A DNA stretch of 64,000 nucleotides, taken from Roseivirga sp. Its GTDB lineage: Bacteria > Bacteroidota > Bacteroidia > Cytophagales > Cyclobacteriaceae. Below the pieces are notes generated by a model that did no database searches, was not told where the DNA came from, and worked only from the letters and a program-made list of their open reading frames with translations. The position numbers and the translations under genes are program-made. The DNA is taken from positions 75,595 to 139,594 of the forward strand of contig NZ_JAXMOQ010000007.1 in the NCBI RefSeq assembly GCF_034669765.1, written 5' to 3'. Shown piece after piece: positions 10,316 to 64,000 of this stretch (position 1 is the first letter of the stretch; every line of letters begins with the position of its first letter).

Positions 10316-11695
10316 GTGGTGAGAAAAAGGTTTAACAGATACTTTCCGTATTTATTTGTGTTAGGGGAAATGATTGTTTTAACAATCATTTTCTTTAGTT
10401 CAGTGTATGTAGCTGAGGGTCAGTTTGTTGTTAGTAAACCGTACCTCTTATTATTGACAATTTATTTGTCTACTTGGCCGATTATTTCATACCTGAATAA
10501 AGATTATAAAATTGGCAGAGCAGTAAGTTACTACACCACATTTAAAAAAGCCTTTTTTAGCGTATTCATTTTCATCTCTGTTATTTCAATTTTTTGGTTG
10601 TTTTCTGAATCTGAATCTTTGGAACGTCATTTTTTGACCACTTTAGTTCTGCTTCTCTTCCTTTGGTTAACCATTTATAGGGTTTCGGTTCATCTTGTGC
10701 TAGATAAGTACAGGGAATTTGGTGGTAATATCAGGTATGCCATTATACTAGGTTATGATGACCTAGGGACTAAGTTATTTGAGACGCTTAAAAAGAAAAG
10801 CCACTATGGAATAAGATGTCTTGGGTTTTATGGAGATCCTAATAGCAAGAATCAGGAGTATTCATATTTGGGAGACTTCAAAGATTTTCTGAAGGCAAAT
10901 CTTGACAATGTAGATCATATTTATGTGAGTGAGAGAGCTCCCAAATATGTATTAGAAAGGGCAATTGAGATTGGAGAGAGTAGTTTAAAAAGAGTAAAAC
11001 TCTTACCAGAATTCAAAACCGAAGCGATTAAGAACTTTGTGCTTCGAAGGTATGATGCGGTACCAGTAATTGACGTTAATAACTTACCACTAGATGCCAA
11101 GGTAAACACTTTTGTGAAACGTGCTTTCGATGTGGTATTTGCTTTTCTGATTTTTGTGTTTTTTCTAAGTTGGATGTACCCTGTATTTGGCTTGATTATA
11201 AAGTTAGAATCCAAAGGGCCAATTCTTTTTAAACAACTCCGGCATGGTAAAGGGAATACGCCATTTTACTGTTATAAATTCAGAACCATGGTGAAAAATA
11301 ATGAATCTGATTTCGTTTGGGCCAGTAAGAATGATCCAAGGATAACCAGGTTTGGTACTTTTTTACGGAAAACAAGCTTGGACGAGTTTCCGCAATTCTT
11401 CAATGTATTGATTGGTAACATGTCAATTGTGGGACCAAGGCCCCATCCACTTTCTCTCAACAAGGCTTATGAAAGTAAAATAGAAAAGTATGCTAAGCGA
11501 CATGCTTATAAGCCAGGAGTTACGGGCTTGGCGCAAGCCATGGGCTTTAGAGGCGAGATAACCGATTACTATCAAATGAATTCTAGGGTGAGACTGGACA
11601 GGTTTTACCTTCAGAATTGGTCTTTCGTATTAGACATTAAAATTATTTTTCTTACAATTTATGCTCTGATGAAGGGGCAAAAGCTGGCTTACTAG
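10316..11695 (+). CDS. wcaJ: Undecaprenyl-phosphate glucose phosphotransferase (priming glycosyltransferase)
   Basis: N-terminal TMs; KRAFDV, KFRTM, DPRITRFGTFLRKTSLDEFPQ, GPRP, KPGVTGLAQ motifs. Confidence 0.9.
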   Translation: MVRKRFNRYFPYLFVLGEMIVLTIIFFSSVYVAEGQFVVSKPYLLLLTIYLSTWPIISYLNKDYKIGRAVSYYTTFKKAFFSVFIFISVISIFWLFSESESLERHFLTTLVLLLFLWLTIYRVSVHLVLDKYREFGGNIRYAIILGYDDLGTKLFETLKKKSHYGIRCLGFYGDPNSKNQEYSYLGDFKDFLKANLDNVDHIYVSERAPKYVLERAIEIGESSLKRVKLLPEFKTEAIKNFVLRRYDAVPVIDVNNLPLDAKVNTFVKRAFDVVFAFLIFVFFLSWMYPVFGLIIKLESKGPILFKQLRHGKGNTPFYCYKFRTMVKNNESDFVWASKNDPRITRFGTFLRKTSLDEFPQFFNVLIGNMSIVGPRPHPLSLNKAYESKIEKYAKRHAYKPGVTGLAQAMGFRGEITDYYQMNSRVRLDRFYLQNWSFVLDIKIIFLTIYALMKGQKLAY

Positions 11696-50191: not shown

Positions 50192-50263
50192 GGTCCCGTA
50201 GTTCAACGGATAGAATAGAAGTTTCCTAAACTTTAGATACAAGTTCGATTCTTGTCGGGATCA
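50192..50263 (+). tRNA. tRNA-Arg (anticodon CCT)
   Basis: Acceptor GGTCCCG/CGGGATC; D arm; anticodon arm GAAGT-TTCCTAA-ACTTT; GTTCGATTC T loop; CCA not encoded. Confidence 0.95.
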
Positions 50264-50296
50264 CACTTAACACTAACTAACAAGTGTAAACAAGAG

Positions 50297-50325
50297 ATAA
50301 GCCACTGAATAACAGTGGCTTATTT
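50297..50325 (+). terminator. Hairpin after the tRNA (terminator or attachment-site palindrome)
   Basis: ATAAGCCACTG-AATAA-CAGTGGCTTAT. Confidence 0.6.
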
Positions 50326-50376
50326 GGTGTTAAGGCATGTTAGTTCTCTTGTCCTATCTTGTTAATTCCCGTAAAT

Positions 50377-50398
50377 TGTTATCCAAAATGTTATACAA
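50377..50398 (+). repeat. Tandem direct repeat, candidate integrase arm-type sites
   Basis: TGTTATCCAA-AA-TGTTATACAA immediately before the int ATG. Confidence 0.5.
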
Positions 50399-50400
50399 CT

Positions 50401-51588
50401 ATGGGAGTTTCATTCAAGCCGATTTTCAACCGAAACAAAACTAAAACCAAGAGCAATCTCTACACTATTCACCTACGGGTGACAATCGATAGGGAGATCC
50501 GGTTCTTTAATCCCAACCTTCCCAAACTAGAAAGTAAATATTGGCAAGGGAGAGAAAACAAATGGGTGAAGGATAGCCATCCGCAAAACCATTTGTTTAA
50601 CAAAGCGCTTATGGACCGAATGCAAGAACTCCAAGAGTACGTAAACAAGCTGTACTTTCTCGATCGTCCAGTAACTTTCCGGCAGCTGTCCGAATTTTTT
50701 GAAAGAAAGGGAGACAAGGAATCTTTCAATGATTATATAGATCACTATTTGAAGATCATCAAGTTTAAATCACCGAACACCCGTAAGAAGTACAATACCT
50801 TCAAGAAGCATATCAAAGAGTTCAATCCAAAAATCAAGTTTAAAGAGTTGGGGGAAGGTCTCATTTTAGAGTACCGGGACTTTCTTTTAAATAAAGGACT
50901 GGTGGGCTCAACCGTAACCAAGTACTTTGATCCATTTAAGAAGATTGCCAGGCATGCTCTTAAAAACGATTATTTAATTCGTGATCCATTTTTTGAGGTC
51001 AAGCTGGAGGTGCCAGTTTCAGTGGTGAAAAGAACAGCTCTTACCATATCAGAAATTGAAGCATTGGTAAACCTTAAGTTCGAGAAAAAGGAAGAACAAT
51101 ATTTAGAGCTGCACCGAGACCTGTTTGTCTTTCAGTGTTTAACTGGGCTATACTATAGTGATGTACGTGGCTTAACGGCCGAGAATTTTATCAATTCTGA
51201 AGCTGGGCTATTACTGGTAAGTGAAAGGTTTAAAAATGGCTACCGCTATATTGTGCCTTTGTACAAGTTTCCAGAAGCAATCAGGCTTTTGAATAAGTAC
51301 AAAGCTGAAGATTCTCCCTTGGTATTTCCAACAGTTGTAGACCAGGCATTTAACAGAGCACTCAAAATAATTGGCCCAATGGCCAAAATAGAAAAGGTGC
51401 TTTATAACAAGGTTGGTCGCCATACATTTTGTGAACTGTTAATATCAAAGGGCTATCCAAGGGAATACGTGGCCAAAATGGCTGGCCACCAAAATTCAAA
51501 AACGACAAAGACTTATTTTGATATAAGCACAAGCCACTTTATTAATGAGCTGAATGGGTTTGGAGCAGTTGAGTTTAAAACTGAATAA
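50401..51588 (+). CDS. int: Tyrosine recombinase/integrase (arm-binding + SAM-like + catalytic domains)
   Basis: N-terminal IHLRVTIDRE arm domain; FQCLTGLYYSD, KVGRHTF, MAGH...TT..Y; ATG 50401 preferred. Confidence 0.92.
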   Translation: MGVSFKPIFNRNKTKTKSNLYTIHLRVTIDREIRFFNPNLPKLESKYWQGRENKWVKDSHPQNHLFNKALMDRMQELQEYVNKLYFLDRPVTFRQLSEFFERKGDKESFNDYIDHYLKIIKFKSPNTRKKYNTFKKHIKEFNPKIKFKELGEGLILEYRDFLLNKGLVGSTVTKYFDPFKKIARHALKNDYLIRDPFFEVKLEVPVSVVKRTALTISEIEALVNLKFEKKEEQYLELHRDLFVFQCLTGLYYSDVRGLTAENFINSEAGLLLVSERFKNGYRYIVPLYKFPEAIRLLNKYKAEDSPLVFPTVVDQAFNRALKIIGPMAKIEKVLYNKVGRHTFCELLISKGYPREYVAKMAGHQNSKTTKTYFDISTSHFINELNGFGAVEFKTE

Positions 51589-51640
51589 TAAATGATAGCA
51601 GTTCCTTAGCCTTTTAAATGTGGAGTAGATTTTCAAGCGC

Positions 51641-52306
51641 TTATCGTTCGTTAGGGTCTACTAGTCCAAATTTTGTCTTTAATCGCTGGAAAACTCCTCC
51701 GGGCTCTGTATCCTCCTCTTTAATAGATGTTAGGGCAACCTCTTTCTCAATTTCATTGACGCCTTCAAACCCTAATTCAATAAGTTTTTTTCTGAATTTG
51801 TGGTTAAGAATAATTGACTTGAAAGTTTGATTGTCAATGGCCTGTTTAGTTTCATGTAATTCTTTAAATTCCTTTTCGAGCTTGGTGTATTCGGCTTTTT
51901 GGTGATTGACTATTTCCCAAAGTTGTTCATTCCTCTTAGTAAGCTCTCCCTCTTCAAAACTCTGCTTTAGCAATTCAACATTCTTTTTGAGTAATTCTAC
52001 AATTTCCTTCCATTGCTCATTTTCCTTCTCCAGTAGTTCGTTTTTCTTTTTTAATGCTTCAATTGTAACTTCTGATTCCTTGTCAAAAAATGGCCATTCA
52101 TCTTTGTCCTCGTTATAAAGGAGCATAAAAACAGGGGTATCAAGCTTTTTGGCAATTTCAAACAGCTTATTAAGTGTTATTTGAGAGCTTCCTCTTTCTA
52201 CTTTACCATAATTTGATTGATTTACACCAATAGCCTCAGCCATTTGGTCTTGACTCAATCCTCTAGAAACTCTTAATTCCTTAATTTTTTTCAGAACATA
52301 GTCCAT
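51641..52306 (-). CDS. XRE-family HTH repressor with C-terminal coiled coil
   Basis: KIKELRVSRGLSQDQMAEAIGVNQSNYGKVERG; ATG 52306 (alternative TTG 52312). Confidence 0.88.
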   Translation of the reverse strand: MDYVLKKIKELRVSRGLSQDQMAEAIGVNQSNYGKVERGSSQITLNKLFEIAKKLDTPVFMLLYNEDKDEWPFFDKESEVTIEALKKKNELLEKENEQWKEIVELLKKNVELLKQSFEEGELTKRNEQLWEIVNHQKAEYTKLEKEFKELHETKQAIDNQTFKSIILNHKFRKKLIELGFEGVNEIEKEVALTSIKEEDTEPGGVFQRLKTKFGLVDPNER

Positions 52307-52307
52307 T

Positions 52308-52404
52308 TTCAAATATAGTATATTTGAATGGAGACTATATTAGTTGTTCTTTAATTATTTTTTATTCAATCCCTTGCGTTTCTAATTAATTAGAAATAGT
52401 TTTG
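52308..52404. promoter_or_regulatory. Divergent switch region: two palindromes and TAnnTTTG promoter elements
   Basis: TTCAAATATA-G-TATATTTGAA (52308-52328); TTTCTAATTAATTAGAAA (52379-52396); TAGTTTTG (52397-52404). Confidence 0.65.
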
Positions 52405-52435
52405 AAATAATTAAAATAGTCTAAAAATAACTACA

Positions 52436-52714
52436 ATGGAAAATCAGTTTCTAATCATCCCTAAAAGTGAGTTTGACGAACTCAAGTTTGGACAGCAAAG
52501 AATACTCGAAGCATTACGGGCGAAGCATGATTCAACTAATACAGATCAATCCGAATACCTGACTACTAAAGAATTTATGGGCAGAGTTAAAATTGCTCGA
52601 TCGAAATTCGATGAATTAGTTGCTGATGGAAAGGTGAAAACTGTTAGGCCAAATGGAGGTAGAAAAATCTATGTGCCAGTAACTGAAGTTGCGAGGTACT
52701 TTGAGGCGGAATAA
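52436..52714 (+). CDS. Excisionase-like HTH_17 DNA-binding protein
   Basis: YLTTKEFMGRVKIARSKFDELVADGKV...GGRKIYV pattern; divergent from the repressor. Confidence 0.8.
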   Translation: MENQFLIIPKSEFDELKFGQQRILEALRAKHDSTNTDQSEYLTTKEFMGRVKIARSKFDELVADGKVKTVRPNGGRKIYVPVTEVARYFEAE

Positions 52715-52718
52715 AAAA

Positions 52719-52743
52719 GCATGGACTGCAATCCATGCCTTTT
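52719..52743 (+). terminator. Intrinsic terminator after xis
   Basis: GCATGGA-CTGCAA-TCCATGC-CTTTT. Confidence 0.65.
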
Positions 52744-52775
52744 CAATTAAGTAATCTAATTAACAAATTATAATC

Positions 52776-53147
52776 ATGACAAATCTACAAAATTCTTTGG
52801 AAAGGTTAAGAACCTTAGCCAATGACCTACCGGAAAATCAGAAAAGCGTAATTCTTGATTCTATCCAAGATATCCATAACACCTGGCGCATTAGTCATCA
52901 TGTGGAAGAACACATAGAGAGCCTGAGACAGTCTTGTATAAATAAAAACATAACTGCGAAGGGCGAAAGGACTATTCGTCATTATATGGCATTGGCCTCT
53001 AGGTTCAAAGAACAAGAACAATCGAACTTTCAAGAGTTCATTACTGCCCTTAAAAAGGAATTTGCTCTTAATGAAAAGGAGCGAGACTACTGGAAGGAAC
53101 AATTCTTAGGAATTAGGGGTGAATTATCAACCACTACTACAGAATAA
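52776..53147 (+). CDS. Hypothetical all-helical protein
   Basis: 123-aa ORF co-oriented within the rightward arm; no motif recognised. Confidence 0.6.
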   Translation: MTNLQNSLERLRTLANDLPENQKSVILDSIQDIHNTWRISHHVEEHIESLRQSCINKNITAKGERTIRHYMALASRFKEQEQSNFQEFITALKKEFALNEKERDYWKEQFLGIRGELSTTTTE

Positions 53148-53152
53148 TTATT

Positions 53153-53173
53153 AGGGGCTTGATGCCCCTTTTT
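53153..53173 (+). terminator. Intrinsic terminator before the DUF3987 gene
   Basis: AGGGGC-TTGAT-GCCCCT-TTTT. Confidence 0.65.
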
Positions 53174-53249
53174 CAAAACTTAATTTTTCAAATCAACAAC
53201 CAGTGTATGACTCCTCATACTTATTCATCACGTCCAATTCAATCTCCCC

Positions 53250-54656
53250 ATGTCCATTGAACCGAAACATGAAAGTCTTGAAACAGCTACTCTATTAGTT
53301 GAGGAAATAGAGAATCATAAGGGTGAATTAGCCAAGGTTGAGACACCACTCTTTCCTGCGCACATTTATAAAATACTTCCAAAATTTCTGAGAGAAACAT
53401 GTGCCTTTTTTGATCAAGGTAGAGATAAGGATGTATTTCTTGCGAGTACACTTACCGTATTAAGCGGCTGTATGCCTGGAGTAAAATTTCAACACGATGG
53501 GAAGACGTACTGGAATAACCTTTTCTTATTCATAATCGCTCCAGCAGCCAGCGGTAAAGGAAAAATGAATTATGGTAAATTTCTAGCCCAACCTATTCAA
53601 AGAAGATACATAAAGGAAAATGACCTGAAAAAAGAGGATTATCAATCACAGCTTTCTCTATATCGAGCAACTCCAGCTAAAGATAGACTATATTCGGCTG
53701 AACCATTAGAACCAGAATACCAATACTTATTCATTCCAGCGAATAGTAGTAGTGCCTCTTTTGTCGAGACTATGGCACGCATGCAAAGTTCCATTCTTTT
53801 TGAGTCTGAAGCCGATACATTAGGCAATACGCTAAAGCAAGATTGGTCTGGGTATAGTGATGTGTTGAGAAAGGCTTTTGAGCATGAAACACATTCTCAA
53901 AACCGAAAGGGACCGGGTAATTATAAAGAAATTGAAGACCCTTGCCTTTCGGTAGCATTGAGCGGTACACCTGGGCAGTTAAGGGGGATTATCCCAAACT
54001 CTGAAGATGGTTTATTCAGTCGGTTTATGTTCTATTACTTCGATGGGGATGAAGAGTTTAGGAACGTCTTTGGCAGTAAATCAAAACCAATACCCTATAG
54101 TGATCAATTAGAGCCTTATTCAAAGGAATTATTACAGATTTATGAAAAGTGCGAAAAATGGGGTGAGGTACGTTTTTCGTGGAAACCAGATCAGGAGAAT
54201 CAATTACAGGACTTATACGAGAAATTGACTAAGTATTATGTCCGATCGTTTGGCTCAGATGTCAAGAGTATCATATTCAGATCAGCAATAATTATTACCC
54301 GAATAGCCTCAATACTAACCGTTCTGCGCACTTGGGAGCGTCAAGACTATTCTAACAACCAACAAGTATGTTCAGGAAAGGACTTTGATATTGCTGTAGC
54401 GTTAGCAGAAACATTCATTGAGCATTCAATGAAAATGCATTCTCATCTTTTGAAAAGAGACCCAACGGATGTATTTCCTCTTAAGAAAAAACAATTCTTT
54501 TTAGCCCTTCCTGATTCTTTTGAAACCAACGAGGCTGAAAGAATAGGCGATGAGCACAGTATCAAGGACAGAACAGTTCGAAAATATTTAAGAGACTGGG
54601 ATATTAATGGACTGCTAGTAAAACTTGATCAAGGAAAATATGAAAAGGCAACATAA
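53250..54656 (+). CDS. DUF3987 P-loop helicase-like replication protein with C-terminal winged helix
   Basis: NLFLFIIAPAASGKG (Walker A), FESEADTL (Walker B), LSVALSGTPGQ, DGLFSRF. Confidence 0.85.
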   Translation: MSIEPKHESLETATLLVEEIENHKGELAKVETPLFPAHIYKILPKFLRETCAFFDQGRDKDVFLASTLTVLSGCMPGVKFQHDGKTYWNNLFLFIIAPAASGKGKMNYGKFLAQPIQRRYIKENDLKKEDYQSQLSLYRATPAKDRLYSAEPLEPEYQYLFIPANSSSASFVETMARMQSSILFESEADTLGNTLKQDWSGYSDVLRKAFEHETHSQNRKGPGNYKEIEDPCLSVALSGTPGQLRGIIPNSEDGLFSRFMFYYFDGDEEFRNVFGSKSKPIPYSDQLEPYSKELLQIYEKCEKWGEVRFSWKPDQENQLQDLYEKLTKYYVRSFGSDVKSIIFRSAIIITRIASILTVLRTWERQDYSNNQQVCSGKDFDIAVALAETFIEHSMKMHSHLLKRDPTDVFPLKKKQFFLALPDSFETNEAERIGDEHSIKDRTVRKYLRDWDINGLLVKLDQGKYEKAT

Positions 54657-54775
54657 CGTGCCGTGTGCCTTTTGTGCCGTTCATACCGCAATTGTGATAA
54701 AACGGCACGAAAGGCATGGACGGCATCTTTAAAATTTAGAAAAAGGCATAAAAGGCACGAATGGCACACGGCACG
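54647..54775. repeat. Iteron-like GGCA repeat cluster with inverted arms (candidate origin)
   Basis: CGTGCCGTGTGCC (54657-54669) / GGCACACGGCACG (54763-54775); GTGCCGTT/AACGGCAC; about 11 GGCA/TGCC units. Confidence 0.8.
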
Positions 54776-54780
54776 ATAAA

Positions 54781-55824
54781 ATGAAATTTATAAATCCATC
54801 ATATCAACTTGAACCAGGAAGTAAGAAGCACATTTGCCCCAGCCCTAGCTGTGGTAAAAAGCGCTTTGTCCGATATGTAGAAAAAGCAACTGGAGACTAT
54901 CTGCCTGAGCAGTACGGCCGCTGTGATCGTGAAGCTAATTGTGGTTACCATCTCAACCCATACAAAGACGGTTATGTAATTAAAGATCAAGACCTTCAGG
55001 GCGGAAAGGTTAATGTAGGTATGGGTAAATCAACCCCCGTTCTCCCGTTCGCGAAGGCGTTCGTTCCTTTTTCTGTGCTTCAGCTAACGCTATTAGCAAA
55101 CGGATATAAACGCAACATATTCATCCAAAACCTTCTGAAAAACATTCCTTTCCCCTTCTCTGAGAAGGATGTGGAGAAAGTAATAGAGCTTTATTACCTC
55201 GGTACATTAAACAAAGGCTATCTGTCGGGTGCACTTACAATTCCCTACATAGATCGTTCGGGGAACGTTCGGGCTGTTCAGGTAAAAACCTTTGATGAAC
55301 AGAACCACACTATTAAAACAAACTTCCTGCATTCCATTGCTGAAAAGCATTACCTAAAACAGGGACATGAAATGCCAAAATGGCTAAAGGATTACTTAAA
55401 GAACGAATCAAAGGTATCATGCCTGTTCGGTGAACATTTACTAGATAAGTATCCGGATAATCCGATAGCACTTGTAGAGGCTCCTAAAACGGCAATCTAC
55501 TCAACGCTGTACTTTGGGTTACCTGATCAACCCGATAACTTTCTTTGGTTGGCAGTTTTTAACCTCAGCAGCTTAAAGCTGGAGAAGTGCAAAGTACTGA
55601 AAGGGCGTAGGATAATACTCTTTCCGGATCTATCTAAAACGGGCAATGCCTTCAAATTGTGGAGTAACAAGGCTGTAGAATTTGAAAAAGAAATGCCAGG
55701 TACCACGTTCACCGTTTCAGATTTGCTTGAACGCAATGCGAACGATCAAGAACGAGAAGCAGGTTTAGATTTAGCTGATTATTTGATAAAGCTAGACTGG
55801 AGAGCGTTCAAAATGGACAAATAA
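54781..55824 (+). CDS. DUF6371 protein with N-terminal Zn ribbon and Toprim-like domain (primase-like)
   Basis: CPSPSCGKKRF...GRCDREANCGYH; CLFGEHLL, IALVEAPKTA, LFPDL, DLADY motifs. Confidence 0.8.
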   Translation: MKFINPSYQLEPGSKKHICPSPSCGKKRFVRYVEKATGDYLPEQYGRCDREANCGYHLNPYKDGYVIKDQDLQGGKVNVGMGKSTPVLPFAKAFVPFSVLQLTLLANGYKRNIFIQNLLKNIPFPFSEKDVEKVIELYYLGTLNKGYLSGALTIPYIDRSGNVRAVQVKTFDEQNHTIKTNFLHSIAEKHYLKQGHEMPKWLKDYLKNESKVSCLFGEHLLDKYPDNPIALVEAPKTAIYSTLYFGLPDQPDNFLWLAVFNLSSLKLEKCKVLKGRRIILFPDLSKTGNAFKLWSNKAVEFEKEMPGTTFTVSDLLERNANDQEREAGLDLADYLIKLDWRAFKMDK

Positions 55825-55859
55825 CTCCTCAGCAAGTGAATTCACCTATTAAAAGTAGT

Positions 55860-55990
55860 TTACGCCATTCCGTTTTTAACACATAGTCAAGCCGTTTTAT
55901 CACGTTTGTGCCGTTTGCGAACGGCACAATAGGCCATTACAAGGCGTTGCAAGCGCCAATGGTGGCCGTTTCAGCCGTTTGAAAACGGCA
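55860..55990. repeat. Second palindrome-rich cluster
   Basis: TTGTGCCGTT-TGCG-AACGGCACAA (55906-55929); GCCGTTT-GA-AAACGGC (55974-55989); several GCCGTT. Confidence 0.75.
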
Positions 55991-56090
55991 GTTACCTCAC
56001 ATGGCGTATTGTAATTTGATTTGTCTTTTAGGTACATAATAATCCTACTGATGACAGTTTTATAGTACTTTAATACACGTTATGGAGCAT

Positions 56091-57065
56091 TCACTTATTT
56101 CTAATCATCAAACCGATAGTCCAAATTGGTTTTTGATCTTTCATGAATATTGTTGAGGCTCTAAACCCTAAAGGTAGGCCAGGAATTGGAACTGTAATAC
56201 CCATGTTTGCACCTGATAATTTTCTCTTACGCTCCCCAGTCAATTGTTCATAAAGCCCCTCATTAAATCCTGTTTGAAATAGCCCAATAAATAATTGGAC
56301 AGGCTTCTTAGCTTGGCTGTCATTATTCAAAGAGAGTCCCTCAAATTCAATTCCCGCATTGAATATTGATTGGCTAAAGTTCAATTGTTCATCATTTGTG
56401 CCTTCATTTAAACTCATATACTTGAAGCCCACATTGGCATATGTGTATAATTGGTAAGCATCATTGGCTAAGGTTCCCTTCTTAATTATATATGTTGGGG
56501 TAAGTGCAATACTCACTCCTCTTGATCCCTGAACCAAAGCATTTATATTTTTTTCAGTGTCTACTGAGATTTCAGAAGCAATATTCGATATGTTGCCTGT
56601 GAGATATAAAATGAACTTGTCTGATATAATATTGAAATCACCAATTTGAATCGGTGCAGAACCGACAAAATTTTCAATATTACCATCTCCGACAAAATTA
56701 TATGAGGCTTCTGCTCCATACCAAAAACTTACGGGAGAACTACCGCTTGCAGTAACTACTACTTCTTCTCCAATGTCATCTGCATCTAATGGTGTAAGAC
56801 TAACTGTCAAAAAATCCGAATTTATTTCAACATATTGAGTACTAAACCCTATGTAGGTAAATTTGAGTGTGTTAAATCCTTCAGGAATTGTAATACTGAA
56901 CTTACCATCAATATCAGTAGAAGTTTCTGATTGAGTGCCTGGAACTAATACTGAGACACCAGGTAAAGGACTACCTGGCTCAATTTGAACAATGCCATTA
57001 ACAATTTTTTGAGCAAATATTAGGTTTGATAAACACAGCATTAAAAGTATGATAATGTATTTCAT
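56091..57065 (-). CDS. Exported protein: SusC-type N-terminal carboxypeptidase-regulatory-like domain fused to a short beta-rich domain
   Basis: Signal peptide; PLPGVSVLV.GT...TSTDIDGKFSI...L.F.YIGF; EEVVVT; only 324 aa. Confidence 0.75.
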   Translation of the reverse strand: MKYIIILLMLCLSNLIFAQKIVNGIVQIEPGSPLPGVSVLVPGTQSETSTDIDGKFSITIPEGFNTLKFTYIGFSTQYVEINSDFLTVSLTPLDADDIGEEVVVTASGSSPVSFWYGAEASYNFVGDGNIENFVGSAPIQIGDFNIISDKFILYLTGNISNIASEISVDTEKNINALVQGSRGVSIALTPTYIIKKGTLANDAYQLYTYANVGFKYMSLNEGTNDEQLNFSQSIFNAGIEFEGLSLNNDSQAKKPVQLFIGLFQTGFNEGLYEQLTGERKRKLSGANMGITVPIPGLPLGFRASTIFMKDQKPIWTIGLMIRNK

Positions 57066-57229
57066 GATAAAGATGGTTTAGTGAAATCAGTGAATACTAC
57101 AAGTACATATGACAGTAATGTAATAATAATAGTGTGGTATTTGGCTATTATTATTTAATAATGTTCCGTTGTGAGAGTTTTAATCGGTTAACCATAGTTT
57201 ACTTAGAAACTTTAAGCGATTTGGATTAA

Positions 57230-57329
57230 GCCGTTGCAGGTATTTTAGCCGTTTGGAAACTGCAGCTTTGGGGCGTTCGTTAGGCGTTCGCGAACGCCAT
57301 GGTCAAGTCGTTCGGGACGTTCGCAAACG
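57230..57329. repeat. Third palindrome-rich cluster
   Basis: GGCGTTCGCGAACGCC perfect 16-mer (57283-57298); CGTTCG x4; CGTTCGCAAACG (57318-57329). Confidence 0.75.
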
Positions 57330-57646
57330 GGGTTTAATCAAAATAATTTGAGTCACAGGGATTTCTTTGTAGAATCGCTTATGTCATTAGATGTTACAGG
57401 TTCACACCAGACTACGTTTGAAATGAACGACTCAGTCTGAACGGATTGGGTTAAGTATCGCCAGAAATGGAATAACGTTTTAATGTTTATTGTTTTTGAC
57501 CCAATTGACGGCCATTATCCATTCTACCTGAATGATGTGAAGGATCGGAAAGAACTGTATGAGGCCTACGAGTCCTATCTACCACAACCCAAGGAAACCA
57601 TACTAGAAGAGAGGGACGTAAAGTCAAATACCAGGATAAACTAAGG

Positions 57647-58066
57647 CTATTCTGGCTTGTGATGACCTTTGCTCAGGTACTTGAATATTTTCTCCTTCCT
57701 ATATTTATCAGCCCAAAACCGATCTACTAAGCCAGGGAAGCATTTGAATATTTTTTCAAACTGCTCTCCAGATCTACTGGTGAAAATATGAGATGTACCT
57801 TTGTCACTGGTTGCCTTTACAATTATCTCAATTTTTTCGAATTTGGGATGATAGGAGTTGGAGAGGTTAAATTCTACATGAATATCTTCTAAAAAGGCAT
57901 TATGATCATCCTTATCAATCAACTGCTTAGCGCTATGATCTGTCTGAAACCACCAGCCCTGTTTCGTTTTCCAGATTTTAAGAAAATGGTGGATGGATTC
58001 TAGCCCATGTCTTCTTAACTGCACAATATATTTACCCGCTTCAACCTTCATAGAACAAAGTAACAA
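57647..58066 (-). CDS. Hypothetical protein (likely start MKVEAG at 58051)
   Basis: Open frame co-oriented downstream of SRAP; no motif recognised. Confidence 0.55.
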   Translation of the reverse strand: MLLCSMKVEAGKYIVQLRRHGLESIHHFLKIWKTKQGWWFQTDHSAKQLIDKDDHNAFLEDIHVEFNLSNSYHPKFEKIEIIVKATSDKGTSHIFTSRSGEQFEKIFKCFPGLVDRFWADKYRKEKIFKYLSKGHHKPE

Positions 58067-58122
58067 GAAGGTAAAATAATAATCAAATTAGTAATGAACT
58101 AAATATATTAGTTTTCACTAAT

Positions 58123-58959
58123 TCAGAATAAACTGCCTTGTTCAAATGATTGAGCATAATGTTTCCACCCTCCTTTTAACGCCTCGTATTCCATTGGTTC
58201 TAACACTTCTGGAATGTTGGCATTCGCGGTTTTAGCCTTTAATCCTTGTCGTACAGGGACGGCCTTCATGCCATCACTTGGGAAAGGTTTAGCAAATTTC
58301 ATTAGTCCTTCAAGCGTTTGGCTTTCCTCTAACCAGTTACTCCACTCTTGGGGCAATAGAATTACAGGCATTCGAGAGCCGCTATGTGCATTAGGGTTAT
58401 TATGAATCACTGACATTAGCTCATTTGGCTTAGTAGTAAGTATGCTAAATGAATTGATGATTTCACCAGTATCAGTGTCGTTCCAACTGTCCCATAGGCC
58501 AGCAAATGCAAACATTGGGTGGTCTTGGAGACTAATCAAATGAGGATAGGTTTGCTTGTTATTCCTATGGTGATAGAACTCGAAAAAGCCAGTCGCTAAA
58601 ACTAAACACCTTCTTGTTTTGTAAAGCCTCTTCCATGTTGGTTTTTCAGCCATTGTTTCCATCATTGCATTGGCAGTTTTGGAATAGTAATTACCAAAGT
58701 CCCAAGGGTGCAAATGCCTCCCATCCTTTTCTATATACTTGGCAAATGGTGGTATCAGACCCCAATGGAAAAACTGTATCTCTGAAGGCTTATCTTGAGT
58801 GATTACAGGCATAGAAGGGTGCCAATCCTTGTAGGCATCCATGAAGTAAAATTGATTGCCAAAATCTAGGAGCTTTTGAATTTCGTTACCGGTTAACTTC
58901 TGGTAAAACTTATTGACCTCCATTTCCTCTTTGTAGGACATCGAATAGCTATAGCACAT
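58123..58959 (-). CDS. SOS response-associated peptidase (SRAP/HMCES/YedK family)
   Basis: N-terminal Met-Cys, WGLIPPF, RCLVLATGFFEF, FAFAGLWDSW, SFSILT, IH...RMPVIL. Confidence 0.92.
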   Translation of the reverse strand: MCYSYSMSYKEEMEVNKFYQKLTGNEIQKLLDFGNQFYFMDAYKDWHPSMPVITQDKPSEIQFFHWGLIPPFAKYIEKDGRHLHPWDFGNYYSKTANAMMETMAEKPTWKRLYKTRRCLVLATGFFEFYHHRNNKQTYPHLISLQDHPMFAFAGLWDSWNDTDTGEIINSFSILTTKPNELMSVIHNNPNAHSGSRMPVILLPQEWSNWLEESQTLEGLMKFAKPFPSDGMKAVPVRQGLKAKTANANIPEVLEPMEYEALKGGWKHYAQSFEQGSLF

Positions 58960-59072
58960 ATATCATTATTTAGCCCTTCCTGGCTTAAAAGTATACAACC
59001 AATCATAAGCATTGGCTAATAGTACTTTATTAAAAGTAGATAATAAAGGAGATAATGGAAAAAGCTTCATGG

Positions 59073-59256
59073 CCGTTTAAACGCGTTGACACCCCGTTGA
59101 TGGTGCGTTTAAACGCATTGACTCTCCGTTTAAACGCATTGACACCCCGTTGATGGTGCGTTTAAACGCATTGACAGTGCCGTTGATGGTGCGTTTAAAC
59201 GTGTGGAAAGTGCCGTTTATCTTACTATGGCAGGCTTTCATGGCGTTTGCAAACGC
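59073..59256. repeat. Tandem array with five CGTTTAAACG palindromes and a terminal GCGTTTGCAAACGC
   Basis: Copies at 59074, 59106, 59127, 59159, 59192; CGTTGATGGTG x3; (C/G)(A/G)TTGAC linkers. Confidence 0.92.
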
Positions 59257-59352
59257 AATTCTTAATCTTAAAATTGCATGAGACAAGATTGAAGAGAAAT
59301 ATCCTATTACCTCCCTGAGGTATGAGTATTCATAAGAAAGAATTAGGAACAA

Positions 59353-59380
59353 GAAAGGCTATTGTCTCCAGTAGCCTTTC
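59353..59380 (-). terminator. Terminator downstream of hsdM
   Basis: GAAAGGCTAT-N8-GTAGCCTTTC stem. Confidence 0.6.
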
Positions 59381-59412
59381 AAATTTAGATTTACTAAATG
59401 AAATATTAAGGT

Positions 59413-60942
59413 TTAATCTTCTGAGCCATTAATTGTGAGCATAATCTCCCTGAAGCTATTCAGACCAGATTCAATGTTTTCGATGATTTCATTCGCTAAA
59501 ACGTCCGGATCAGGTAAGTTGTCTAAGTCAGTTAGACTTTTGTCTTTGAGCCAAAATATATCTAAACTGGTTTTATCTCTTGATACGATTTCTTCATACG
59601 TGAATTTACGCCATCTACCATCTTCATTTTCAGCATCCCATGTTTCCAATCTCTTATTCCGGTTTTCTGACTTATATAGCTCAATAAAGTCTTCCAAATG
59701 CTGAATGGTCATCGGTGACTTCTTCGGGGTATGATGCACATTGGTTCTGTAATCGTAAAACCAAACTTCCTTGGTCCAGGCTTCTTTACTCGCAGGCTTA
59801 TTGGTAAAGAACAATACATTAGCTTTTACTCCCGGTGCGTAGAATATACCAGTAGGTAGGCGTAGAATTGTATGAAGCTCAGTTGTCTTCAGCAATTGCT
59901 TTCGAACCTCTTCACCAGCACCTCCTTCAAATAGGACGTTATCAGGCAAAACAACTGCAGCTTCTCCATTAATCCTTAGCATAGTTTTAATATGCTGCAA
60001 GAAGTTCAATTGTTTGTTTGAAGTTGTTTCCCAAAAGTCCTGACGGTTGTAGCTCATGTCTTGCTTTTCGGCTTCACCTTCTTCATTGGTGATGGTCATG
60101 CTACTCTTCTTCCCAAAAGGAGGATTGGCCAGCACATAGTCTACTCTAAAACCATCATCAGAAATCAATGCATCGGTAGACTTAATCGGAGTATCGCCAA
60201 TGATATCTCCAATATTATGGAGATACATATTCATTAAACACATTCTACGGGTATTGTCTACAATCTCATTGCCATAGAAGGTTTTATTCTTCAAGAACTC
60301 CTTTTCTTCTCTATCCAGCGAATTGTTTGCAATCACCCAATCATAAGCTGCCAAGAAGAAACCACCTGTACCACAAGCTGGATCTGCAATAGTTTTGAGT
60401 GGCTTTGGTTGAACACAGGCAACAATGGCTTTGATCAATGCTCTTGGTGTAAAGTATTGTCCTGCTCCAGAACTGCCGCTACTATCCATAGCGTTCTTTT
60501 CTAACAGCCCTTCATAGATGGTTCCTTTAATGTCGGCACCCATCATATTCCAATTCTCTTTATCAATCAAGTCGATGACTTTTAAGAGTTTGGAAGGGTC
60601 TTGAATTTTGTTCTGACTCTTGGTGAAAATCTGACCTAACATTCCTTTTTCAGTAGATAAACTACGGAGCAATTGGCTATAAAATGATTCCAGCTCAGCA
60701 CCTCTTTTGCCAGAAAGTGTTTCCCAATCACAGATTTCGCCATCAGGAATTTCATTGCCATCGACATCTTTCAGTTTGGGGAAAACAAGGCCTTTGCTGT
60801 ATGGCGGCTTATTGAGCTCGTCTGCCATTTTAAGGAACAGCAAATAGGTGATTTGCTCCAAGTAATCGCCATAGCCCACCCCATCATCACGCAATACGCC
60901 AGCGAGGTTCCAAATTTTTGAAATTATTGTAGAGTCTGTCAT
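59413..60942 (-). CDS. hsdM: Type I restriction-modification methyltransferase subunit M
   Basis: GAGQYFTPR, DPACGTGGF, NPPF, VLPDNVLF, LRLPTGIFY motifs. Confidence 0.96.
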   Translation of the reverse strand: MTDSTIISKIWNLAGVLRDDGVGYGDYLEQITYLLFLKMADELNKPPYSKGLVFPKLKDVDGNEIPDGEICDWETLSGKRGAELESFYSQLLRSLSTEKGMLGQIFTKSQNKIQDPSKLLKVIDLIDKENWNMMGADIKGTIYEGLLEKNAMDSSGSSGAGQYFTPRALIKAIVACVQPKPLKTIADPACGTGGFFLAAYDWVIANNSLDREEKEFLKNKTFYGNEIVDNTRRMCLMNMYLHNIGDIIGDTPIKSTDALISDDGFRVDYVLANPPFGKKSSMTITNEEGEAEKQDMSYNRQDFWETTSNKQLNFLQHIKTMLRINGEAAVVLPDNVLFEGGAGEEVRKQLLKTTELHTILRLPTGIFYAPGVKANVLFFTNKPASKEAWTKEVWFYDYRTNVHHTPKKSPMTIQHLEDFIELYKSENRNKRLETWDAENEDGRWRKFTYEEIVSRDKTSLDIFWLKDKSLTDLDNLPDPDVLANEIIENIESGLNSFREIMLTINGSED

Positions 60943-62399
60943 TCCTTGAACTTGTTTTTAATTTCCTTTTCCTCTGGTATATAAGCCCAATATTCTAAGT
61001 CTATTTGAATCAACTTTTTGAGCCTTTCAAAGTAGGCCTTTTCAATATCGCTCATTCGAGCAGGGCCAATAATAATTAAACGATTGCAAGTGATATCAGC
61101 ATCGAGCATTGCGTATTCAAAGATCTGACCTATTGCCTGTCTAATGTTTTTGAGAGCAGTATTGCTTGTTTTGATTTCAAATAAATCAAACTCGTCATTT
61201 TGCTTCAGTACAACATCAACAATGGCACCTCCTACACGAGTTTTTTCTACCGATATCTGTCTTTTACCGAATCCTTTTAAAATTAAGTAATCATATAGAT
61301 TATCGGTGATCTCACTATGCCTTCTTATCACCTTAGATTGCTTACCAGAAGTTGTTTTGGTATACTCACTTTGACTTGAAGCTTTACCACTCTGAAAATC
61401 AAATTTGATTTTTTTCGCAAATGATGATTTGAGTAGCACCTCTAATTCCTCAGATAAATGATATGGCATAAATCGGTTAAATTCAGGGCCATCGAGGAAA
61501 TCAACTGAAAACGGTTCATTGAATAACTCCGCTTCATTCCATTTAAATTTAATATTCGGAGAGTATTCACCTTTTCGGAAGACTCTGTAGTCAGCATTTA
61601 CACTTTTTAATTCAGCCTTCATTGTGGCATGATTCGACTCAAGCAATTGTGCGATTTTAGCTAATTCTTCTTCATACCCCTCAATTATTTCAACATTATA
61701 GAGATTGCCAACCAAACATCTTTGCTGATCGTCTCTTATTGTATAAAGTGTTATCTGGTCAATTCGTTCAGCTTTCTGTGAGAGGCCATCTACCCCTCTT
61801 ACATAACCATACTGATATCCATCTAATCTAAACCTTTCATTGAACAACCATTCCTCGTGGCCATAGCCATACTGGTTCTCGTATGCAATATTGGTATTAC
61901 CTTGATTTTCTGGACGCCAAGAGTGTCCACTTGGAGTTTCCCAATTGTTTGAATTCCAAGTTAACCGCATAATTCGCTTGTCCGGAATAGCTTTTGAACC
62001 CAACCATAATTCAGTTGCTTTTTTCTTTATTTTTTCTAAATGAACTTTTACTATTCCTTGTTGTAACTTGTATTTGAATACTTGCTGGTTGCTTAGAACT
62101 AAAATTTCTGCATCGTAATAAGATATCTTATCGAACCTCTTGACATTATAAGCACTGAATTCGCTAACTAATTCTTTATTATCATAAATAGGAATGGCAT
62201 TACTTTTAACCTTTGCGATAGCTTTCACGGAGTGCCCCTCAGCGATTAACACTATGTCATCCTGCTTATAAATCCCGTTCGATTCATAACCTATTACAAA
62301 ACTTTTTCGAATAAGTACATTGTAGAAACTAGGCTCATTCGAATCCCAATTACACCCAAGTTTCCAAAACTGGATATCGGAAAAATAACTCTCTGCCAT
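60939..62399 (-). CDS. Multidomain protein with a C-terminal PD-(D/E)XK nuclease and two uncharacterised N-terminal modules
   Basis: VEK...VDVV...LFEIKTS...IRQAIGQIFEY; middle module RLTWNSNNWETPSG...GYGHEEWLF; stop overlaps the hsdM start. Confidence 0.7.
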   Translation of the reverse strand: MAESYFSDIQFWKLGCNWDSNEPSFYNVLIRKSFVIGYESNGIYKQDDIVLIAEGHSVKAIAKVKSNAIPIYDNKELVSEFSAYNVKRFDKISYYDAEILVLSNQQVFKYKLQQGIVKVHLEKIKKKATELWLGSKAIPDKRIMRLTWNSNNWETPSGHSWRPENQGNTNIAYENQYGYGHEEWLFNERFRLDGYQYGYVRGVDGLSQKAERIDQITLYTIRDDQQRCLVGNLYNVEIIEGYEEELAKIAQLLESNHATMKAELKSVNADYRVFRKGEYSPNIKFKWNEAELFNEPFSVDFLDGPEFNRFMPYHLSEELEVLLKSSFAKKIKFDFQSGKASSQSEYTKTTSGKQSKVIRRHSEITDNLYDYLILKGFGKRQISVEKTRVGGAIVDVVLKQNDEFDLFEIKTSNTALKNIRQAIGQIFEYAMLDADITCNRLIIIGPARMSDIEKAYFERLKKLIQIDLEYWAYIPEEKEIKNKFKE

Positions 62400-62430
62400 C
62401 CTTAATCTAAGTTTTAATTTTTATTCCAAT

Positions 62431-63363
62431 TTAACTCTTCACCTGAAGGGTAAACTGCTTATCCAATCGGATTATTAATTGTCTGCCTTTCGACAGCTTC
62501 ATGAATTCTGAATGGTTAGATAACACTCTGGCCAAATCCCTTGCAACGGCACTTCCACTAATGTTATTAGCTACTTGGCCATTGTTTAATTCTAGGTTAA
62601 ACGTATAGGATTTCCGGTTTCCGACTGCGGCAAAAGGAGCTTTTCCGATATAAATATCGGTTGATCTACCTTCCTTAAGAGCATCTAATATTGTTGGAAT
62701 CACTTGTTTCCAAATGTCTTCGTATTTGTGTACATCCGCTGATATAGCCCTTGGTGCTGTTGCTTTAACAATTTTCTTTTTCGGGCTAGGGTCACTATGA
62801 GGATCGCCATAAGCGATCATTCCTGTTTCTTTCCGTAACGCACTGATGATTGACTTAGATGGATTACCTTGATTCTTTCGATCGATGTTCAACAATGGCA
62901 CTTGCATCTGAATAAGACGCGTTTCTAGTTCATCGAGTGCTGACAAAGAACCATTGTGCTCATGGAAAGACAAAGCTAAGTTCGCTCTCATCCATTGGCT
63001 CAACTTTTTCTCTGATGCTTCATCAAACTTGTAATGGCTTGTTCGCTTTTTCTCTATGTCAGCAAGCCCTCTTGGAATTGGTATAAGGTTGAGGCTCTTC
63101 CTAAGCATAGCGCCAAAGCTTCTTCGTAGGGTAGAGCTGCCTGTTTTGCCATCGGCAAAGTGTGTATCACGATCCCGAGAGGCTTGGCTCGATTCTGTTT
63201 TACCGATGTAGATAATTTGATCCTGTTTGGGCTTGCAGTTTTCCAAAGGAAAATCCGATCCAATGAAAAAGAGGGCATATATCCCCGGTTTATTGGAAAA
63301 TGAGTTAATCTCTTCATAGGGTGTTTTTTGCCCGACTAAGTGAGTGATGATGTCTAGACTCAT
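62431..63363 (-). CDS. GIY-YIG nuclease fused to an unassigned C-terminal domain
   Basis: KPGIYALF...IIYIGKTE, STLRR, ELETRLI...PLLN; C-terminal GNRKSYTFNLE...SAVARDLARVL. Confidence 0.78.
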   Translation of the reverse strand: MSLDIITHLVGQKTPYEEINSFSNKPGIYALFFIGSDFPLENCKPKQDQIIYIGKTESSQASRDRDTHFADGKTGSSTLRRSFGAMLRKSLNLIPIPRGLADIEKKRTSHYKFDEASEKKLSQWMRANLALSFHEHNGSLSALDELETRLIQMQVPLLNIDRKNQGNPSKSIISALRKETGMIAYGDPHSDPSPKKKIVKATAPRAISADVHKYEDIWKQVIPTILDALKEGRSTDIYIGKAPFAAVGNRKSYTFNLELNNGQVANNISGSAVARDLARVLSNHSEFMKLSKGRQLIIRLDKQFTLQVKS

Positions 63364-64000
63364 GATTTCTCCTTTTTGATTTTCGCTAATAAAACCGAAG
63401 CCGGCTCATAATCCTCTGCCTGCTTGCATTTGGCTATTTCTGCTGTGGAAAGCAACGTGCCTTCAAAGGCTTTTTTTAGAATGCTTTGGCGTAGTGCTTT
63501 GGCTTTTTCTAAGCTCTCGGTAATGCTTTCCTCTACCTTATAGCATACAGAAAGGCGAGATTCGATTTCTTTTAATATTTGGTGTTGTTCTTCAATTGGA
63601 GGAATAGGAATCGGAATTTCCTTTAATTCAGCCATACCGACCATATTGGGCATCGCAGAACCTAATGATTTTTGAAAAATTAATCTCTGAAATGATCCTG
63701 ATCTAAATAGTTGAATGAAATAACGCTTTAACATAATAGACTCATCCATATCTATTTTTAGCAGGGCTTGATTAATTACTCCTATATCAGCATCTTCAGG
63801 TAATAGACAAATTCGACCAAGAGTTACTCCGGAGCAGCTTATTATCATGTCTCCTGCCTTTGTTTCAAAAGCTTTTAGTTCTTTGAATTTTTCGTTTGTT
63901 ATGTAATATCTATGGCGATATGGTTCATCATTAATAGCGTGTCCTTGCTCATAAACTACAATGCCTTTTTCGACAAAGAATTCCTTTTTCAAAGCACTGC
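63360..64000 (-). CDS. hsdS: Type I RM specificity subunit S, partial (5' part outside the window)
   Basis: Frame open to the window edge (SALKKEFF..G..VYEQ); GDMIISCSGVTLG, PIPIPPIEEQ..I, LRQSILKKAFEG. Confidence 0.93.
   Translation of the reverse strand, partial: SALKKEFFVEKGIVVYEQGHAINDEPYRHRYYITNEKFKELKAFETKAGDMIISCSGVTLGRICLLPEDADIGVINQALLKIDMDESIMLKRYFIQLFRSGSFQRLIFQKSLGSAMPNMVGMAELKEIPIPIPPIEEQHQILKEIESRLSVCYKVEESITESLEKAKALRQSILKKAFEGTLLSTAEIAKCKQAEDYEPASVLLAKIKKEKS

Follow-up and report, generated by a model that had tools for sequence, protein, structure and literature searches.

What is the function of a 486-codon gene that lies between hsdS and hsdM of a type I restriction-modification (R-M) operon? 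This question is raised by a 64,000-nucleotide (nt) stretch of the Roseivirga sp. contig NZ_JAXMOQ010000007.1 (hereafter the window), in which an open reading frame (ORF) of 486 amino acids (aa) occupies this place on the minus strand. An original prediction, made from the letters of the window, described the encoded protein as resembling a three-module, type IV-like endonuclease with putative tandem PUA-superfamily readers of modified bases followed by a D...EIK nuclease. In the present study, we propose that the gene represents an undescribed family of type IV-like restriction nucleases that work alone as one polypeptide and in which an N-terminal reader of the McrB type can be exchanged, a prediction that we hold to be about evenly balanced between right and wrong. 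The proposal starts from four directly observed features: how the domains are arranged, that the catalytic residues are intact, that McrB and GmrSD proteins also carry the N-terminal module (N-module), and where in their genomes the genes lie.

First, the three-module layout was borne out. The strings by which the modules had been recognized (FWKLGCNW, DDIVLIAEGHSVKAIAKV, WNSNNW, YGYGHEEWLF, YQYGY, EIK, and RQAIGQ) are all present in the ORF, and an AlphaFold2 model built on a 103-sequence alignment (mean predicted local distance difference test, pLDDT, 92.8) contains three separate domains at residues of approximately 1-139, 140-342, and 343-486 (Table 1), with boundaries backed by homologues. 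The long N-terminal module is common to 21 aligned homologues, each of approximately 490 aa and covering 95-99% of the query, and the profile of this module matches residues 4-138 of the 486-aa frame; therefore, the ATG at 62399 is considered the true start. The public gene call for the protein (P0001) is 429 aa long and begins at an internal GTG (residue 58), which halves the N-module. Eleven residues are invariant in the 103 sequences, i.e. P156, E183, W184, L185, H361, D395, E408, K410, R420, Q425, and Y429. Searches of the protein against Pfam, NCBIfam, PADLOC, and PHROGs returned nothing above noise except PADLOC Cas4_II (E 0.023, residues 352-436), none of the 107 homologues carried a Pfam domain or a name beyond 'hypothetical', and Pfam scans of ten homologues with other N-terminal extensions gave no family. 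When the PDB was searched by sequence, using as queries the protein and profiles of the family and of the N-module, only chance matches to PadR and Cas12a3 were obtained.

Second, the C-terminal domain is, as judged from conservation and predicted fold, a RecB/NucS/Can2-type PD-(D/E)XK nuclease with intact catalytic residues, consistent with what had been claimed for its D...EIK motif. The model places D395 at the beginning of strand 396-400 and E408 and K410 at the end of strand 403-409, with R420, Q425, and Y429 on the helix that follows. The Q425-x3-Y429 motif completes a D...ExK...QxxxY pattern, which we take to be the mark of RecB/NucS-type PD-(D/E)XK nucleases. Comparison of the full model with the PDB using Foldseek gave probabilities of 0.99-1.00 to the nuclease domains of Can2, Cdn1, Card1, and AF1548 over approximately 120-135 columns with a root-mean-square deviation (rmsd) of approximately 4 Å; as the entire protein served as the query, the E-values were only approximately 1e-2. 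Lower ranks, with probabilities of approximately 0.6-0.96, were taken by NucS, R2 restriction-like endonucleases, and type IIS enzymes.

Third, the conserved core of the family comprises the middle domain and the nuclease, and the N-terminus is exchangeable. Among one genome from each of 185,579 species, 370 relatives were observed, spanning Bacteroidota, Pseudomonadota, Planctomycetota, Myxococcota, Omnitrophota, archaea, and others, and this distribution is sporadic. The middle domain is present in all 103 aligned homologues, approximately 45 of which are 325-360 aa long and start at residue ~140. The N-module of the Roseivirga protein is carried by 21 of the 103, and the remaining homologues carry at least six other N-terminal extensions of approximately 100-270 aa that are unrelated in sequence; thus, at least seven unrelated N-terminal modules are found in all on one middle-plus-nuclease core. 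As the homologues of approximately 340 aa begin at residue ~140 and the others carry unrelated extensions, the module boundaries are independently supported. Word searches restricted to the N-module or to a 260-aa alternative module recovered same-architecture proteins only, within the reach that the word index permits.

No relative, in structure or in sequence, matches the family-defining middle domain significantly. In addition to its invariant positions, R145, W148, N149, W153, G178, G180, H181, E182, and Y197 are near-invariant, and a separate AlphaFold2 model of residues 138-342 reached a pLDDT of 93. When this domain was searched alone with Foldseek, the top five PDB matches were all of the ASCH type, including AF2351 and three ZmASCH entries, and these matches were weak (E 0.06-0.4, probability ≤0.44, template modelling score ≤0.40). 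The matches to the viral structures of BFVD were weak, unnamed, and uninformative. With profiles built from Bacteroidota genomes, hhalign gave the middle domain 0.6% against EVE and 0.7% against DUF3427, and no comparison of these two profiles with either N-terminal domain or with the alternative N-modules reached 21%, most being below 1%; PF11907 (DUF3427) has a match elsewhere in the host genome and none in the 486-aa protein. Thus, 'PUA-like' is a best guess for this domain and not a finding. The ASCH likeness is also the point from which an RNA-directed function might be argued, namely, that PUA/ASCH/EVE-like domains read a modified tRNA or rRNA base and the nuclease cuts RNA. Consistent with this possibility, RNA is the predicted ligand of EVE-like domains in some systems of the McrBC type (PMC11090510), whereas McrB and GmrSD, the main partners of the N-module, act on DNA. 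We consider an RNA target highly improbable, the more so as the RecB/NucS/Can2-type PD-(D/E)XK domains characterized to our knowledge are DNases.

The N-module has no Pfam entry, and its EVE-like character is suggested by fold only. In the Foldseek search with the full model, the EVE-HNH enzyme VcaM4I was matched over 155 columns with a probability of 1.0 and an rmsd of 3.8 Å, and THYN1, an EVE protein, was matched with a probability of 0.47. Both are missing from the top 50 when the middle domain is searched alone, and the nuclease of VcaM4I is of the HNH and not the PD-(D/E)XK type; therefore, the EVE-like match is assigned to residues 1-139 by elimination. A profile of ten N-module sequences searched against 1.84 billion representatives matched 242 clusters at E ≤0.001 and 189 at E ≤1e-10. 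Among 76 long N-module proteins, 52 contain AAA_5, and the alignment consensus (GPPGTGKT, FHQSxxYEDF, IIDEINRxN, MNTADRS, and RRRF) displays the motifs of McrB GTPases, including the NxxD signature (PMC11090510). GmrSD_N was observed in 4 of these proteins, a true EVE domain in tandem with the N-module in 5, and PtuA/PDC-M01A-like ABC ATPases in 7; a KAP NTPase and a protein kinase were single cases. In P0121, the only tandem case read residue by residue, the EVE domain directly follows the N-module. In genome G127, the N-module and AAA_5 occupy one 583-aa ORF with a McrC (PF10117) ORF directly after it, and this is the one N-module McrB for which McrC adjacency was verified. The census of partner domains and this operon thus indicate that the N-module is a mobile defence sensor domain, above all a target-recognition end of McrB. 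The module was found in 3 of 401 Bacteroidota genomes and was absent from the same-genus genome searched. Taken together, the claim of tandem PUA readers is half supported: the N-module is a probable reader-type domain by its VcaM4I/THYN1 fold matches and its sharing with McrB and GmrSD, and the middle domain, with weak ASCH matches and no profile similarity, does not bear the claim out. The per-domain Foldseek comparison proposed for settling this claim covers the middle domain searched alone, and the EVE-likeness of the N-module comes from the full model.

The position of the gene inside a type I operon could suggest a different answer, i.e. that the protein is an accessory or guard of the type I system, working with HsdM/HsdS or, in the manner of PrrC of the prr locus, firing once the type I complex has been blocked by an anti-restriction protein from a phage. 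The gene has a fixed place between hsdS and hsdM, where stop and start codons overlap, and in 27 of the 80 related loci whose neighbourhoods were counted, the order hsdR-hsdS-X-hsdM, with the family member (X) directly upstream of hsdM, was observed in several phyla; it recurs in Bacteroidota, a Woesearchaeota metagenome-assembled genome, and Lentisphaerota, and a Planctomycetota locus has the order hsdR-hsdM-hsdS-X. N-module homologues from metagenomes show the same operon arrangement, with patatin, DUF433-PIN_10, and DUF4062 plus SLFN_AlbA_2 in neighbouring slots, and one N-module homologue lies outside any R-M operon. Against such a role, however, 53 of the 80 members are unlinked to R-M genes, and the maximum-likelihood tree of the core requires at least 8 changes (gains or losses) of the R-M-linked state and contains a 28-member, mostly proteobacterial clade that is never R-M-linked. 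The hsdS-hsdM slot is shared by unrelated passengers (GIY-YIG_2, DUF4062 plus SLFN_AlbA_2, and AAA_21), and scans of the 486-aa protein against Pfam, NCBIfam, and PADLOC revealed neither a match to the HsdR, HsdM, or HsdS families nor ABC ATPase or anticodon-nuclease features. An accessory or guard function is therefore very unlikely. The context and tree data indicate instead that the family is not a type I subunit but acts autonomously and is frequently accommodated in type I operons, and, because other unrelated passengers occupy the same place, that the hsdS-hsdM slot is a general insertion hot-spot. The unlinked members lack a conserved partner; their neighbours are heterogeneous, with no Pfam family present in more than 4 of 147, and no cyclase or CRISPR neighbours were seen in the neighbourhoods of relatives.

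Several related loci show further variation. In 8-9 of them (e.g. L064:6875-8452 and L043:8591-9484), an AAA_21/AAA_15 ATPase of approximately 525 aa and a 297-aa protein without a Pfam family lie between hsdS and the family member and constitute another recurring pair of passengers. Rhodonellum psychrophilum carries tandem type I operons on the same contig (L010 and L022), and in each of them hsdS and hsdM flank a family member. Of these two copies, the first is intact, and the second, split into L022:9974-10339 and 10454-11041, is probably a pseudogene. In the metagenome locus L090:1426-10365, numerous short ORFs stand in place of hsdR and of hsdM, and the 490-aa homologue between them is intact; either the type I system has decayed and its passenger has survived, or the assembly contains errors.

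The embedding in R-M operons, together with the nuclease fold, also bears on an abortive-infection function. In this alternative, the ligand of one or both N-terminal domains would be a modified nucleotide in free form or a short fragment, such as m6-dAMP (N6-methylated dAMP) freed when a phage degrades the type I-methylated chromosome, and ligand binding would release the nuclease on cellular and phage nucleic acid. A precedent exists in PUA-Cal-HAD, in which a PUA-like domain senses m6-dAMP and activates the effector, and the PUA-Cal-type PUA-like family has been reported fused to McrB and HNH and within R-M operons with N6-adenine methylases (preprint 10.64898/2026.01.15.699771). The nearest nuclease folds, Can2, Card1, and Cdn1, are ligand-activated effectors, and the 486-aa gene is translationally coupled to hsdM, directly upstream of which the family member stands in approximately 27 of the 80 loci, in several phyla. 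Nevertheless, the PUA-Cal aromatic motifs (VWWGWW and TPxYY) are missing from the N-module set, in which the stretch corresponding to TPxYY reads FxYxLQQG, TPxYY itself not having been pattern-searched. Moreover, two-thirds of the relatives, the 28-member clade included, are not near R-M or methylase genes, the N-module partners are mostly McrB motors, and the studied McrB N-terminal domains bind DNA (PMC11090510). We therefore regard abortive infection as a serious alternative but an unlikely one. The identification of the N-module with the PUA-Cal domain itself was rejected, as none of the proteins retrieved, the N-module set included, contains the W-[WFY]-G-[WFY]-W pattern that stands for the tryptophan-rich motif VWWGWWxKxxExxP. 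A related and quite unlikely idea is that the middle domain is a new class of sensor which, with the N-module, reads products of the host methylome (free m6-dAMP or methylated fragments) and not phage DNA; the hsdS-X-hsdM arrangement would then be a unit listening for its own methylated debris, i.e. a nuclease counterpart of the PUA-Cal-HAD filament.

Returning to the type IV-like nuclease, that it acts on DNA, that it requires a modified base, and what its middle domain does are inferences beyond the four observed features. Herein, we propose the following mechanism. The N-module, and probably the middle domain, would bind DNA containing a non-canonical base of the hypermodified phage type, and the RecB/NucS-type PD-(D/E)XK domain (D395, E408, and K410) would then cut the bound modified DNA. 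The middle-plus-nuclease core would be the autonomous unit, and the N-terminal module would be an exchangeable specificity add-on. In the Roseivirga operon, where the type I system cuts unmodified DNA, the passenger nuclease would complement this activity by catching phages that escape through base modification. Several lines of evidence are consistent with this proposal, including the intact nuclease, the N-module shared with McrB and GmrSD, the VcaM4I/THYN1 fold matches, and a layout analogous to that of YenY4I/McaZI. In addition, two-thirds of the relatives have neither a conserved partner nor a linked methylase, the family is sporadic, unrelated N-terminal modules occur on one core, and the gene resides in an integrase island of a host genome in which no C5-methylase was found. 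A cognate protective methyltransferase also appears to be absent, because 53 of 80 relatives have no R-M neighbour and the adjacent hsdM is part of a type I system that is complete, with its own hsdR.

Other results weigh against the type IV-like proposal. The VcaM4I match was placed on the N-module by elimination and not by a per-domain search, and neither the N-module nor the middle domain matches any hidden Markov model (HMM) of the PUA superfamily; for example, a search of the host genome with PF01878 found another gene and not the 486-aa gene. An hhalign comparison of the N-module with 30 Bacteroidota EVE sequences reached only 12.8%, and that alignment is limited to the GD-x-V...G-x-V-x-AIA-x-V stretch. 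The only putative sensor in every member is the middle domain, which has no significant match to known readers, and the PtuA-like, KAP, and kinase partners raise the possibility that the N-module could be a general DNA or nucleotide sensor and not a modified-base reader. Furthermore, the host genomes of 32 of 50 relatives, including the three closest, contain C5-methylases, the same rate as in the control genomes (9 of 14). Dependence on plain 5-methylcytosine (5mC) or N6-methyladenine (6mA) is unlikely given these C5-methylase hosts and the m6A methylase that abuts many members, because a nuclease with a general dependence on 5mC or 6mA would be toxic to such hosts. Thus, if the enzyme is modification-dependent, a hypermodified phage base or a narrow sequence context is the more likely target. 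The idea that hosts avoid C5-methylases, which would have pointed to 5mC as the target, was tried and rejected on the same counts.

The 486-aa gene belongs to an integrative island of approximately 27 kb (window 50192-64000 plus L002:1-13920), which starts at a tRNA gene followed by an integrase (Table 1) and ends with a 15-nt direct repeat of the tRNA 3' end (TCTTGTCGGGATCAC) at L002:13905, i.e. 77310 in the extended window numbering, just before a DinB-type polymerase gene. The minus-strand operon begins with the 940-aa hsdR of the EcoEI type and continues with NERD-SF1 helicase (1125 aa), WYL, DUF433, PIN_10, hsdS, GIY-YIG_2, the 486-aa gene, and hsdM. As read from the sequence, the 486-aa gene ends and hsdM starts within one ATGA, and the stop codon of hsdS overlaps the GIY-YIG_2 ATG in the same manner (ATGA), so that both pairs are translationally coupled. 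The GIY-YIG_2 protein is an independent second passenger, because no homologue was found in the 80 related loci; it is a putative homing-type or restriction-type nuclease whose C-terminal half has no assignment. Scans of the operon for promoters and terminators gave site counts that did not exceed those in shuffled sequence, and the coding strand had no terminator-like site. Between hsdR and hsdS (L002:1531-6360, minus strand) lie the genes for the 1125-aa protein with NERD and SF1-helicase domains, for a WYL protein of 90 aa, and for a DUF433/PIN_10 pair resembling a toxin-antitoxin system, which is also found at the same place in L003, L010, and L085. Just upstream of the EcoEI-type hsdR, a 145-aa ORF (L002:9286-9723, plus strand) matches only the C-terminal domain of EcoR124-type HsdR (PF12008) and is probably a remnant of another type I system. 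A gene for an SOS-response-associated peptidase (SRAP; window 58123-58959, minus strand) lies just downstream of hsdM, and SRAP genes a few kb downstream of hsdM were also observed in L043, L065, and L071. The other island genes encode a helix-turn-helix protein, a DUF3987 protein, and a DUF6371 plus zinc-ribbon protein.

Table 1. Positions in the window of the 486-aa gene, its domains and motifs, and the neighbouring and island features.
Feature	Position	Strand	Basis
Whole gene, 486 aa: N-module, conserved middle domain, and putative PD-(D/E)XK nuclease	60939..62399	-	ORF (coordinates exact, stop codon included), 107 homologues, AlphaFold2
N-module, residues 1-139: predicted EVE-like fold, mobile sensor domain	61983..62399	-	Foldseek by elimination; profile search
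Middle domain, residues 140-342: family-defining, aromatic-rich (W148, N149, W153, P156, G178xGHEEWL185, Y197)	61374..61982	-	Conservation, AlphaFold2
Predicted C-terminal PD-(D/E)XK nuclease, residues 343-486, stop included	60939..61373	-	Foldseek; weak PADLOC Cas4_II match
Catalytic core D395 ... E408-I-K410	61170..61217	-	All three residues invariant in 103 sequences
Q425-x3-Y429 helix motif, invariant R420 before it	61113..61127	-	Invariant in 103 sequences
hsdM, type I m6A methyltransferase	59413..60942	-	N6_Mtase, HsdM_N; PADLOC MTase_I E 1.7e-187
GIY-YIG_2 protein, 310 aa, second passenger	62431..63363	-	PF20815 E 1.2e-21
hsdS C-terminal part, running past the window (482 aa in full)	63360..64000	-	Methylase_S
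tRNA-Arg(CCT), island start	50192-50264		
Integrase	50359-51588		

If the proposal is true, two unnamed building blocks of bacterial immunity have been defined. The first would be a core composed of an unmatched 200-aa domain and a PD-(D/E)XK nuclease, present in approximately 370 species of many phyla and without an entry in family databases. The second would be a reader-type N-terminal domain, absent from Pfam, that is carried by many McrB motors, some GmrSD proteins, and several other defence NTPases. The family would then be a candidate source of enzymes for hypermodified phage bases, of interest both for the phage-host conflict and as reagents for mapping modified DNA. Moreover, the hsdS-hsdM junction of EcoEI-type operons is documented herein as a recurrent landing site for defence passengers.

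The family can be compared with several established groups. With NucS/EndoMS and Can2/Card1, the protein shares the C-terminal fold and the D...ExK...QxxxY motif set, but it has neither a CARF or SAVED sensor nor the NucS N-terminal domain. Similar to PrrC, it is encoded by an extra gene inside a type I operon, although the domains are unrelated and most relatives here lie outside R-M operons. Many McrB-like GTPases and some GmrSD_N proteins have a member of the N-module family at their N-terminus, whereas the 486-aa protein contains no GTPase motor, McrC partner, or DUF262/DUF1524 and is one chain with its own nuclease. VcaM4I is an EVE-HNH type IV enzyme (PMC7897488) and the best reader-type fold match of the full model; with VcaM4I and TspA15I, the protein has in common a nuclease joined to an N-terminal reader, which in the 486-aa protein is putative and PUA-superfamily-like by fold match, and it differs in the PD-(D/E)XK instead of the HNH nuclease, in the extra 200-aa conserved domain, and in an N-module that has no EVE HMM match and, by sequence, is not an EVE domain of the TspA15I/VcaM4I type. 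The closest parallel in layout is provided by YenY4I, which combines an EVE-like domain, DUF3427, and PD-(D/E)XK, and by the commoner group of McaZI, which consists of DUF3427 and PD-(D/E)XK (Lutz et al. 2019, PMC6765204); both groups restrict T4gt (PMC6765204). The middle domain here is not DUF3427 (no PF11907 match and hhalign below 1%), and the Pfam scan of the 486-aa protein revealed no nuclease family, DUF3883 included. Nevertheless, the order is the same, with an optional N-terminal EVE-like reader (putative in the present family), a second putative sensor, and a C-terminal PD-(D/E)XK domain, and in both cases the two-domain form is the more widespread and the proteins are single polypeptides, often encoded in defence islands.

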